Shown one piece after another: positions 8,463 to 41,478 of a DNA stretch of 41,802 bases. Origin of the DNA: Reclinomonas americana ATCC 50394 (Eukaryota). Every line of letters begins with the position of its first letter. Position 1 is the first letter of the stretch. Made by a program: the position numbers and the translations under genes. The stretch spans positions 1 to 41,802 of the forward strand of contig PS015127.1 of assembly GCA_048213135.1 (NCBI GenBank), in the 5' to 3' direction. The notes below the pieces were generated by a model. The model ran no database searches. It had not been told where the DNA came from and saw only the letters and a list, made by a program, of their open reading frames with translations.

Positions 8463-11213
8463 TCATTCCCCTGCTGGCGGTGTCGGCAGCAGAATGTCGA
8501 CCGAGGCCAGCGCGTCGACGACCCAGCCGGGGTAGTCGCCGGCCGGGTACATGCGCGCGCAGAATTGCTGCACGAACTCGACGAATGTGCCGGCCTCAAT
8601 GGCCTCGCGCATGTCTGCATTGAGTCGCTGCATGAACGACACGTTGTGGAGACTGAGTAATGAACTCGCCACCTGCCAGCCAGCGACCGTGAGTGCATGC
8701 AAATGAGGATAAAAATGAAAAGACAGGTGCCACACACACCTCGGGATTGGAGTGAAACAATTCGTGCAAATGAGAGCGAGGAGTCTGCGCCACCTCCCAG
8801 TCGAATTCGGCAGCCAGTGGTGTGTGATCGGTGGCGTACTTGCGGTGCCTGGGAACACAGTGAGGGAGTGGGGAGAGAGAGAGAGAGAGCTTCTGTCAAT
8901 CGCCGACTCACTTGATGTCCAGCTTGCCGGTGGGCACGAGAGCGGTGCCGAAACGCGCCGTGCGCGTTGGGTACACCGAGTCGGCCATGTCGGCACCGAG
9001 AGCGACAATCACCACCCAGTCGAGTGGGTGACCAATGCCCATGCAATAACTGTGGCATGGACGAAGTAAGAAGAGATACTGTGTGTGAGTGGGTGTTTGA
9101 CACCGCACCGTGGCTTGTTGGTCGGCAGGATTTCGGCCGAGAGCTTGACCATTTTCCAGAAATCGTCCTTGCTCTCGCCGCCACTCAGACCGCCTGAGTG
9201 GAGAAGGGAGATCAGAGAGAGAGAGAGAGCGAGAGAGATTCATAATGAAAGCATGTGAAAGTTGAGCCATGCTAACTCTCTCACACACTCTTCGCAATTA
9301 TCTCGCTCTCTTCATCAATCGCAAACACACCCATTCACTCTCATTCATATCCCCTCTCTCCTGCCACTCTCATCTTGCTCATTGCACTCATCCTCGCACC
9401 TTTCGCCACAACTCGCTCTCTCCAATGCTCAGTCGTCCACCACTGCCTCAGTCACTCGCTCGTGCCCGTGCATCTCCTCTTCCCTCTCACTTCTCCTTTC
9501 CCCTCCCCCTTCCGCTCACCAATAGCATATCCCGGCAAATCCCTGGCCACCAACTCACGCGCACACTGAGCACGCAAGTCGGCATTCAGTCCACCTTGCA
9601 CAATGCCAAACAGATTCTGCGTGCCCCCGTGTTCAGCGCCATTTCTCTTCAAACTCGCAAAGCACACACCAGCATGATACCTGATCGTGCGGCCTCCCAT
9701 GAGCAGCAATGCACCGATCGATCCACCGCAGCGTGCGATGCATGGCCTCCTCCACTCGCGGACCCGAGATGAGACTGCTGACCACATCATCCAGTGCCAT
9801 GATGATATCGGCGCCAATCTTGTTCTGAATCGCAATCGAGTCCTCCGGACGCAGCGTAATCATCTTGCCGTCGTGCGCACTCTGAAACACCACGCCCTCC
9901 TGTGCCAAGAAGTGGAGGGAAGGAGTGAGCAAGCAGCATGGCGCGACATAGACAGAAACGGAACCACCTCGGTGATCTCCGCCAAATCCAACAGCGACAC
10001 CATCTGATAGCCGCCACTGTCGGTGAGCATGTTGCGCGGCCACTTCATGAACTCGTGCAGGCCACCCAGCTTGGCAATGAGGTCGCACCCGGGTCGCAGT
10101 CCCAAGTGGTACGTGTTGCCTGTGAGCGAGAATGAGAGAGAGAGAAAGAGAGAGTGAGAGAGAGAGAGAGAGAGAGAGATGCATCTTGTCAGTCGCTCTC
10201 TCTCGATCTCGATCTCTCTCTTTGTTGTGGGATCCGACTCTGTCTATCCCTCTCTGCCTCTCTCGCTCTCTCACACGTGCACAGCCAGGCAGTCCTCTCT
10301 CAAGACCTTATTCCGCTTGTCGATCACTCTCTCCCTCATTGTGTGCGTGCTGCCTCTCTCTCTCTCGTCTCCCCACACGCAACTGAGAATGATCTGCGCC
10401 CCCGTGGCCTCAATCTGCTCCGGTGCCAGCGCCTTTAGCGTGCCCTGCGTGCCCACTGGCATGAACACCGGCGTCCGCACCAGTCCGTGTGGCAGCTGCA
10501 TGCGACATGACCGCGCTCGCCCGCAAGTCGCAACGACCTCGAACTCGAGTGCAGGGGATACTGAGGGGAAGGTGGAGGGAAAAGGGAAAGTGAGTGAGTG
10601 GAGGGGAAAGAAGGAGGAGGAGGAAGAGGAGGAGGAGAAGAAGGAGACGAGGAAGAAGAACCAGCTCATGAACAAGAGGAGGGGAAGAACAACGAGAACA
10701 AGAAGAAGAAAGAAGAGAAGAAGAAGCAGAGGAAGAAGACGAAGAAGAAGAAGAAGAAGAAGAAGAAGACGAAGAAGAAGAAGAAGAAGAACAAGAGCAA
10801 GAACAAGCTCATGAAGCAGGAAGAAGAACATGCAAGAGACGCCTGTTTCATCTCTCTCTCTCTCTCTCACACGCAAGCTGCAAGAGAGACAGGAGAGATG
10901 CAAGTCACTACCAGTCTTCCTCTCTCACACACTCTCACTCTCTATCACATGCACAAACAAGTTGCAGGAGAGACTGGAGAGTGACTGCAAAATGCAAGTC
11001 GAAAAAGCCTATCTTCCTCTCACACACACAGGCTGCAAGAGAGACAGGAGAGTGACTGAGAGATGCAAGTCACTGTCTTCCTCTCTCACTCTCACACACG
11101 CATGCAAGAGAGACACAGAGAAATGCAAATCACCAGATGCTTGCCTCACTCTCCCTTACTCTCCCTCTCTCCCTCTCTCTCTCTCACACACCCGACTTGG
11201 TCTCCGTCGACAT
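8463..11213 (-). CDS. QTRT1: Queuine tRNA-ribosyltransferase catalytic subunit (eukaryotic TGT), about 9 exons
   Basis: Spliced translation [14 protein letters not shown]...[11 protein letters not shown]...[10 protein letters not shown]...[12 protein letters not shown]...IIMALDDVV...LFGIVQGGL...AIGGLSGGE...KPRYCMGIG...[19 protein letters not shown] and GGLSGGE are the eukaryotic (queuine-accepting) variants. The first micro-exon 11192-11213 is inferred. Confidence 0.95.
10830..11135. repeat. Degenerate tandem repeat in QTRT1 intron 1 (TGCAAGAGAGACAGGAGAG...ATGCAAGTCACT units)
   Basis: Unit visible near 10831, 10880, 10963, 11034 and 11103, next to a (GAA)n tract at about 10735-10790. Confidence 0.65.
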
Positions 11214-11286
11214 GCAAACACACACTACACATGACTCACACGCAAACTGTCCGTCAATCACTTCTCTCTCTCTCACGCGTGTGTGA
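11214..11286. promoter_or_regulatory. Putative 73-bp bidirectional promoter between QTRT1 and the ABCA gene
   Basis: Divergent predicted ATGs at 11213 (-) and 11287 (+). Inferred from position only. Confidence 0.45.
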
Positions 11287-40638: not shown

Positions 40639-40688
40639 CGACGTTTTCGTAGCGAATGAAGACAGACACAACGTAATCTTACTTTTTT

Positions 40689-41478
40689 TCACTGTCGATC
40701 TGCGCAGCAGCGGGTGAGCACCACAACAACGCAGCAAACCCAAAGAGAGAGAGACGCAACAACTAAAGGCCACACCAAAGCCGAGCTGTACAATCACTGG
40801 CACACTCTTCATGACGCTGACGATCTTCTGCCCGTCCCTGCGACGGAGCAGCACTGCGGGGATGCGAACATCCACCCCGACTCCCCCATCATCCGACATG
40901 ACAAACACGTCGTCGTCGTTGGTGTTGAGCAGCACAACGCCCACGGCTCCGGCGTTCTGCGCGTGTCGGATCTTGAACACAAAGCTGCACTCCTGTGGCA
41001 AGAAGAATCAGAGTCAGCATGAGGGAAGAAGGGAGGGAGAGAAGACAGACAGACACTCAACTCCACGCTCAATGACAGCGATCTTGCCCTTGAGTGCGCG
41101 TTGGTTGCGCAGCTCGGTGCACGCACGCACTGGCATTGCTTGCACGAGAGCTGCACACGCGTTGAGAAACACACGCACATCCACACCCTTCACTCTCTCT
41201 CTCACACTCTCACACACACGCAACTGGCCTCCACTGGCATTCCCGTCAAGTACGGTGGCCCAAACTGCGCCACTCCATACACATAGTCGCCCGCAGGCAG
41301 GTCTGCGCCAAGGTGAGCACAAAAGAGAGAGAGAGAGCGCGCGCATATATGACAAACCATTCTCATCCACTGGCACCGCCAAGCTCTGCGGCGCCAGCAC
41401 GCGGAACCCGCTGACGCACGTGAGCAGGAAGCACACGAGGAGAACGAGCACAGACACACACTCTTCTCTCCCTCTCAT
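40689..41478 (-). CDS. Small secreted protease-associated (PA) domain protein (PRADC1-like), 5 exons
   Basis: Signal peptide (VLVLLVCFLLTCVSG), AQFG, ACTELRN..ALKGKIAVIERG|ECSFVFKIRHAQNAGAVGVVLLN, VRIPAVLL...DG; predicted end GFDRQ-stop. Confidence 0.85.

Follow-up and report, generated by a model that had tools for sequence, protein, structure and literature searches.

The DNA studied here (the window) is a stretch of 41,802 nucleotides from contig PS015127.1 of Reclinomonas americana ATCC 50394, eukaryotic draft DNA broken by nine N runs, with a G+C content of about 55% overall and near 0.78 at third codon positions. Pfam and homologue searches placed in it QTRT1 (8466-10924, minus strand), an ABCA-like ABC transporter (plus strand, to about 19000), RFC1 (19447 to about 24200, minus), a calpain-like gene recognised by a weak match (24100-26400, plus), an EF-hand gene (plus), a ubiquitin-like gene (minus), PWP1 (38801-40638, plus) and a PA-domain gene (40477-41484, minus). 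Our subject is the 5' splice sites (donors) of the introns that interrupt these genes. An earlier note on the window had listed 14 donors that carry the usual motif one base further into the intron, behind an extra T (GTTGCGT and related words), and had proposed that such off-by-one donors are routine. We find a second, abundant donor class of U2-type GT-AG introns, which has a good probability of being real as judged from proteins and reading frames, and which is on balance best read as pairing with the U1 small nuclear RNA (snRNA) in a register shifted by one base.

Results

Placement of the introns

Profiles were built from the homologues of QTRT1 (n=101), RFC1 (n=26) and PWP1 (n=17); every GT/GC-AG pair near each exon gap was enumerated and the junction with the highest profile score was taken, with no donor consensus used. 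Pfam coordinates served to place the PA-domain and EF-hand introns. The introns fixed by profile score or Pfam coordinates form a homology tier of 22, from which the PWP1 intron with its donor at 38966 is excluded because the profile does not discriminate there. Eight introns of the ABCA-like gene bring the curated set to 30, and the counts given below describe this set rather than an unbiased catalogue of the whole window. When the chain of eight ABCA-like introns is removed, the frame runs on without interruption and holds Walker A, Q-loop and Walker B in this order; the Walker A junction at 17316 agrees with a PDB alignment, that at 17105 was ranked by local coding score and the other six were placed by eye. 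Donor classes were set from intron positions only, the shifted type being defined by T at +3, G at +6 and no G at +5.

Four gene finders free of any donor model (codon, 3-periodic Markov, self-trained and supervised) were dropped, the best of them giving the exact ends of 11 of 23 curated introns; noise dominated a boundary score that included terms for the intron side, and that score too was dropped. With a simpler donor-free boundary score, 20 of 23 curated donors reached the 88th percentile or higher, but of the 15 GTTGCGT sites only 5 reached the 90th, which makes the score too weak for single sites. PDB searches with single exons of RFC1, the calpain-like gene and the ABCA-like gene were empty or returned chance matches, save for the Walker A junction at 17316, and a representative protein search with a calpain exon gave four weak matches.

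A second class of donors

Each of the 30 curated introns has GT at its start and a CAG acceptor. T stands at +3 in 11 of the 22 homology-tier donors and in 13 of the 30 curated ones. The shifted type accounts for 6 of 22 and 7 of 30, respectively, and on this count off-by-one donors are indeed routine, as the earlier note had suggested. Donors of this type match 0-1 of the four canonical marks and 3-4 of the four shifted marks, and at the extra position only T is seen. The classes also differ in the exon: within the homology tier the exon ends in G at none of 6 shifted donors versus 11 of 12 donors with G at +5 (p=0.0004), and in the 30 curated introns at 1 of 7 versus 15 of 18 (Fisher p=0.003); with 38966 restored, the figures are 2 of 8 versus 15 of 18 (p=0.008). 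The avoidance of exon-final G is a tendency, not a strict rule. A test of the -1 base at the level of words gave p=0.24, a weak comparison since most GTGCGT words are not donors.

The 7-mer GTT[GA][CA]GT is carried by 4 of the 22 donors chosen free of any motif versus 19 of the 4624 GT sites of the window (0.4%; binomial P=2e-6). As a word, GTTGCGT occurs 15 times in the window against 6.5 expected, a count of at least 15 being reached in 2 of 100 shuffles; GTTGAGT (3 versus 6.5 expected) and GTTACGT (1 versus 1.2) are not enriched. Shifted and ordinary introns use the same 3' signals. In addition to the CAG acceptor, a branch-like word, CT[GCA]A[CT] (a loose pattern of our own), lies within the last 50 nt of 24 of the 30 curated introns, in both classes, and the median intron length is 60-69 nt in every class.

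Shifted donors at individual sites

The motifs cited in the earlier note (nine GTTGCGT, two GTTGAGT, one GTTACGT, two GTTGCGC, GTTTGCG at 27420 and GTATGCGT at 27835 on the minus strand) all lie where it had placed them. Its 14 shifted donors fare unequally: five are backed by homology, five by frame and coding potential only, and four are ambiguous or untestable.

Intron 1 of QTRT1 (10120..10383, minus; donor tca/GTTGCGTGT) is best placed by profile at the claimed position, 10383, which outscores every other GT/GC-AG junction (170.1 bits, with a GC donor 3 nt downstream at 164.1) and has the top local coding score. In RFC1, the intron 20653..20725 (minus; caa/GTTGAGTCC) reaches 106.8 bits versus 95.2 for the next junction, a margin of 11.6; a GC alternative is impossible here, and in the open reading frame (ORF) downstream of the intron a Pfam AAA_lid_RFC1 match begins at profile position 16. 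A second RFC1 intron of the shifted type, 19867..19925 (minus; aca/GTTTCGTTC, GTTTCGT), absent from the earlier list, scores 87.1 versus 82.2 on the RFC1 profile. The PA-domain intron 40993..41061 (minus; gga/GTTGAGTGT) is placed by the continuity of the Pfam PA profile, as had been held, since positions 4-37 match in the upstream ORF and positions 36-95 in the downstream ORF, beginning at the first exon residue; its donor also has the top local score. Two PWP1 introns complete the group. The first, 39769..39828 (plus; tct/GTTGCGTCT), is in frame and free of stops, and scores 176.0 on the PWP1 profile, against 174.5 for a GC donor at +3, 169.7 for the next GT and 163.8 for read-through; the second, 40328..40381 (plus; aca/GTTGCGCTG), scores 33.8 versus 29.0 and ranks second by local coding score.

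A further in-frame intron of RFC1, 20404..20466 (minus; aaa/GTTGCAAAC, GTTGCA), was not counted as shifted. Its spliced forms score 65.5-66.3 versus 48.7 for read-through, and the sole GT donor ties with two GC donors. The introns 39769-39828, 27420-27488 and 20404-20466 (minus) have lengths that are multiples of 3 and hold no in-frame stop, and the ORF reads through them.

Among the donors backed by frame and coding potential, that at 41224 in the PA-domain gene (intron 41151..41224, minus; cca/GTTGCGTGT) has the top local score by 2.8. Two donors carry the shifted word after an exon-final G: 38966 in PWP1 (38966..39077, plus; tgg/GTTGCGTTA), top by 4.5, and 17105 in the ABCA-like gene (17105..17163, plus; tcg/GTTGCGTAG), top by 3.7 and part of the uninterrupted eight-intron frame. 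The donor at 13752, top by 5.5, opens a 58-nt intron in a gene without assigned family (13752..13809, plus; agc/GTTGCGTAT); an acceptor at 13879 was rejected as out of frame and 13809 taken instead. The donor at 25681 in the calpain-like gene (25681..25751, plus; cct/GTTGCGTTG; acceptor 25733 or 25751) has the top local score but is a tentative call, as an in-frame GTGAGT donor at 25705, 24 nt downstream, scores 5 lower. The sites at 25681 and 25705 could be alternative 5' splice sites of this gene.

The ambiguous sites include a second calpain-like donor, at 25170 (25170..25249, plus; ctt/GTTGCGTGT), which ranks third in its frame, trailing 25194 and 25188 by no more than 1.2, with three in-frame GT alternatives within 30 nt. 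The earlier claim of donors pinned by homology holds for QTRT1 and the PA domain, but for the calpain-like gene it did not: the Pfam E-values are 0.23 and 0.00044 (below cut-off), the Peptidase_C2 match is marginal and the PDB searches were empty. At 14161 (14161..14227, plus; tct/GTTACGTCT) the proposed donor comes second by 0.3 with all scores low; at 31081 (31081..31149, plus; cga/GTTGCGTGA) it is again second, with scores near zero; and at 24031 (23955..24031, minus; gct/GTTGCGCGC) the flank is of low complexity, an N run is adjacent and the scores are negative.

Six GTTGCGT sites lie outside the earlier list. Those at 23902, 34885 and 38989 are antisense to coding sequence or intron, 12405 (minus) is of uncertain status, and 40760 (minus) and 31282 (plus) are donor-like, the latter running into an N gap. 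The site at 40760 (gtt/GTTGCGTCT) is a possible extra donor near the 3' end of the PA-domain gene, where it would open a 61-nt intron (40700..40760, minus) with a CTCAC word and a terminal CAG; its local score is low.

Donors in the ordinary register

Two further sites had been put forward as candidate two-base shifts, at 27420 and at 27835 (minus). Both carry G in the -1 and +5 positions and thus fit the ordinary register. The first opens the intron of the EF-hand gene (27420..27488, plus; gag/GTTTGCGGA, G/GTTTGC), where the read-through ORF has an EF-hand_7 match of 82 residues for 61 profile positions, and RNAduplex puts this donor in the canonical register. The second (27779..27835, minus; gag/GTATGCGTG, G/GTATGC) comes from sequence reading only. 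Donors with T at +3 and the ordinary marks (G at -1 and at +5) also include G/GTTTGT at 19705, 40002 and 18042 and G/GTTCGC at 38843.

Intron 18147..18214 of the ABCA-like gene (plus; junction read by eye), one of the chain of eight, has an ordinary donor after a non-G exon end, cca/GTGCGTACT, and so runs counter to a strict requirement for G at -1. With a human-type U1, the ordinary GTGCGT donors at 18147 (exon-final A) and 18295 (exon-final T) pair at -2.7 and -1.1 kcal/mol, respectively, a weakness that hints at a U1 that may differ at the position facing +4.

Intron 3 of QTRT1 (9617-9680, minus; cag/GTATCATGC) fits both classes poorly. Its start is faintly U12-like, without a U12-like branch word. 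Introns of the U12 type have the donor consensus /RTATCCTT and a TCCTTAAC-like branch. For the shifted class a U12-type identity was rejected, as none of its donors has ATCC and Rfam gave no U11/U12 match in the window.

Pairing with U1

RNAduplex folding used the human U1 5' end given in PMC4856993. Each of the 18 donors that have G at +5 folds in the canonical register, whereas 5 of the 6 shifted donors without G at -1 place G+1 on C9 of U1, and three of these also pair A7 with +3, C4 with +6 and A3 with +7. At 39769 there is only weak pairing of +6 and +7. The two shifted words that follow G-1 fold otherwise, 17105 in a bulge-like form (canonical start with an internal loop) and 38966 in only a short canonical-start helix. 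An Rfam search of the window for snRNA genes found no U1, U6, U11/U12 or other snRNA, and returned only sub-threshold matches to low-complexity sequence.

Other features of the window

The closest homologues of the genes in the window have 65-78% identity or less, and a QTRT1 exon compared with metagenome contigs matched 80 loci with a maximum identity of 78%, none of them close. PWP1 (plus, stop codon 40636-40638) and the PA-domain gene (minus) are convergent over 40435-40760; the frame of the latter is open to 40477, antisense to the acidic tail of PWP1, so the 3' end of the PA-domain gene is uncertain. The nucleotide-binding domain of the ABCA-like protein (16900-18860, plus) is interrupted by eight short introns, its signature motif is degenerate in appearance (by eye), and the intron 17316-17635 contains a (CTGT)n run of about 190 nt. 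Many introns are filled with (GA)n, (TG)n and (CT)n runs, and the sub-threshold microRNA-like Rfam matches that result from them are due to chance.

Discussion

As far as proteins and reading frames can fix the junctions, these results show that the shifted donors exist, that they are cut at GT and that as a class they avoid an exon-final G. The U1 register itself, and whether U1 is standard or altered, we infer from these patterns. In the mechanism that we propose, both classes would share one 7-base word read by U1 (G, G or T, T, R, N, G, T), the first G of which would be the last exon base in ordinary donors (G/GTRNGT) and the first intron base in the second class (/GTTRNGT). U1 would then pair one base out, through G+1:C9, U+3:A7, G+6:C4 and U+7:A3, so that the G+1 of the intron would substitute for the G-1 of the exon, and cleavage would still occur before the first GU, fixed later by U6, U5 and Prp8. 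Tentatively, and stopping short of calling it probable, we suggest a general form of this idea: one word with two cleavage offsets, chosen by its second base, G or U. In a quarter to a third of the introns the place of U1 binding would be uncoupled from that of the cut, perhaps aided by a U1 5' end that has drifted toward GUUGCGU, and genome-wide the exon-final G and the intron-first G would each serve in turn as partner to the same U1 cytosine.

Several observations weigh against the shifted register. Shifted helices formed with a standard U1 are weak, at +0.5 to -6.1 kcal/mol. Two shifted words stand after an exon-final G (17105 and 38966) and, conversely, three donors with G at +5 stand after a non-G (8911, 18147 and 18295). 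Among 17 candidate sites, 7 have A at -1, 6 have T, 2 have C and 2 have G, and the clear preference for A that pairing with U10 of U1 predicts is not seen. The homology margin at 39769 is small, 1.5 bits over the GC donor, and the PWP1 profile is uninformative at 38966. GTGGCGT is enriched over first-order expectation like GTTGCGT (14 versus 6.0), and word counts alone are therefore weak evidence. The samples are small, six ABCA-like junctions were placed by eye, and every junction is deduced from proteins and frames.

How U1 would meet the word is the point on which the closest alternatives differ. A bulged register was the first option of the earlier note. U1 would bind normally (C8:G+1, A7:U+2), with a bulge at +3 (or +2) for the additional U, and pairing would resume at +4. 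Bulge +2/+3 and +3 registers have been validated in human cells (PMC4856993), and the canonical starts that RNAduplex gives at 17105, with an internal loop, and at 38966, in only a short helix, point the same way, both after an exon-final G. A bulge keeps the G-1:C9 pair, however, so that exon-final G should remain enriched, and it was found at 1 of 7 donors in the shifted class and at 15 of 18 with G at +5; a bulge should also accept any base at the extra position, but the window has few copies of GTAGCGT (1) and GTCGCGT (2), none of them in a curated donor, and T is the only base seen. Together with the shifted folds of 5 of the 6 donors without G-1, these points make the bulge a poorer fit to the class than the +1 shift, and we hold it to be quite unlikely. 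The other possibilities named in the earlier note were a variant U1 or U6 snRNA, or altered U1C/LUC7/U6-m6A machinery. The weakness of the shifted helices, and that of the GTGCGT donors after non-G, with a standard U1 leaves room for an altered U1, or for a second U1 paralogue, with a 5' end fully complementary to GUUGCGU, to which the word would then be cognate. The changed U1 of Entamoeba, and a Mastigamoeba U1 whose core matches a +4C donor like the GTGCG(T/C) found here, offer parallels (10.1101/2022.06.08.495308), and several +4C donors of the window pair weakly with standard U1 (-1.1 to -4.0 kcal/mol). Against this, Thecamonas also prefers +4C yet keeps a standard U1 (same preprint), and a single U1 cannot fully complement both classes; the window has no snRNA match and thus nothing that bears on U1. 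An altered U1 appears to us unlikely as the explanation of the class.

Two other explanations were considered. If these were GC-AG introns starting 3 nt further on (GTT/GCGT), the frame would be kept; the GC junction at 39769 is just 1.5 bits lower, and GC donors tie with GT at 20466. But GT is preferred in all three profile comparisons (3/3; by 6.0, 1.5 and 4.8 bits at 10383, 39769 and 40328), GTTGAGT (20725, 41061), GTTTCGT (19925) and GTTACGT (14161) offer no GC at that place, and a GC class that always follows GTT, without the rest of the donor consensus, is implausible, so that this explanation is most improbable. The class could also be an artefact of the gene models, the true donors being other nearby GTs and the word being common through composition, and the four ambiguous sites (25170, 14161, 31081 and 24031), the small fraction of GTTGCGT sites (5 of 15) at or above the 90th percentile of the donor-free boundary score and the equal enrichment of GTGGCGT are in keeping with this. 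It accords badly with the 7-mer in 4 of 22 motif-free donors versus a background of 0.4% (P=2e-6) and with the margins of 11.6 bits at 20725 and 6.0 bits at 10383, and we consider an artefact very improbable. The +1 shifted register is the reading that we prefer.

Human +1 shifted-register 5' splice sites were reportedly described by Roca and Krainer in 2009. Like them, the donors described here are GT-AG, match U1 poorly in the normal register and well one base downstream, and are cut at GU. Such sites are also treated in a review (PMC9311317), and, according to PMC4856993, the shifted register exists in human and all validated noncanonical registers together make up about 1.5% of 5' splice sites. 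An example oligonucleotide for the shifted register given there has A at -1, GU, one base and then AAGU, which resembles our class in having a non-G at -1. The differences are also clear: (i) the shifted type accounts for 7 of the 30 curated introns here, in contrast to about 1.5% for the human noncanonical registers together (PMC4856993); (ii) the core is TGCGT or TGAGT here and TAAGT in human shifted sites; and (iii) the human registers were validated in cells (same paper), whereas the register here is deduced from sequence. The human bulge +2/+3 and +3 registers (PMC4856993) offer another way to draw these letters, in which a U bulges out between GU and the consensus, and this may apply to 17105 and 38966; unlike those registers, most of the class here lacks an exon-final G that a bulged helix could use.

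A comparable departure from GUAAGU is found in the donor consensus of other protists, Entamoeba and Mastigamoeba, and the GUGCGC of Mastigamoeba resembles the ordinary GTGCG(T/C) here (10.1101/2022.06.08.495308); GTTTGT donors, compared with these systems, also occur here (19705, 40002 and 18042). Each of those species has one transformed consensus (same preprint), whereas in our window two classes one base apart are found in the same genes. The parts of that preprint consulted contain no GUUG/GTTG word and mention no shifted register. Within a limited paper collection, searches for GTTGCG/GUUGCG with intron or splicing returned primers and unrelated matches only, and searches for atypical donors and U1 in protists returned nothing on a shifted class. 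In human the register is a known minority mode; its abundance here is new.

What follows for this organism depends on junctions predicted from protein similarity and frame. Splice models with six positions and a single register would miss or misplace at least a quarter of the introns, including the in-frame, stop-free intron 39769-39828, and the gene catalogue would then be systematically wrong. If the shifted register is routine, these genes would provide a natural system for asking what fixes the cleavage site once U1 has left, and could show how far U1 pairing can drift, both of which are approachable in human cells on rare sites only.

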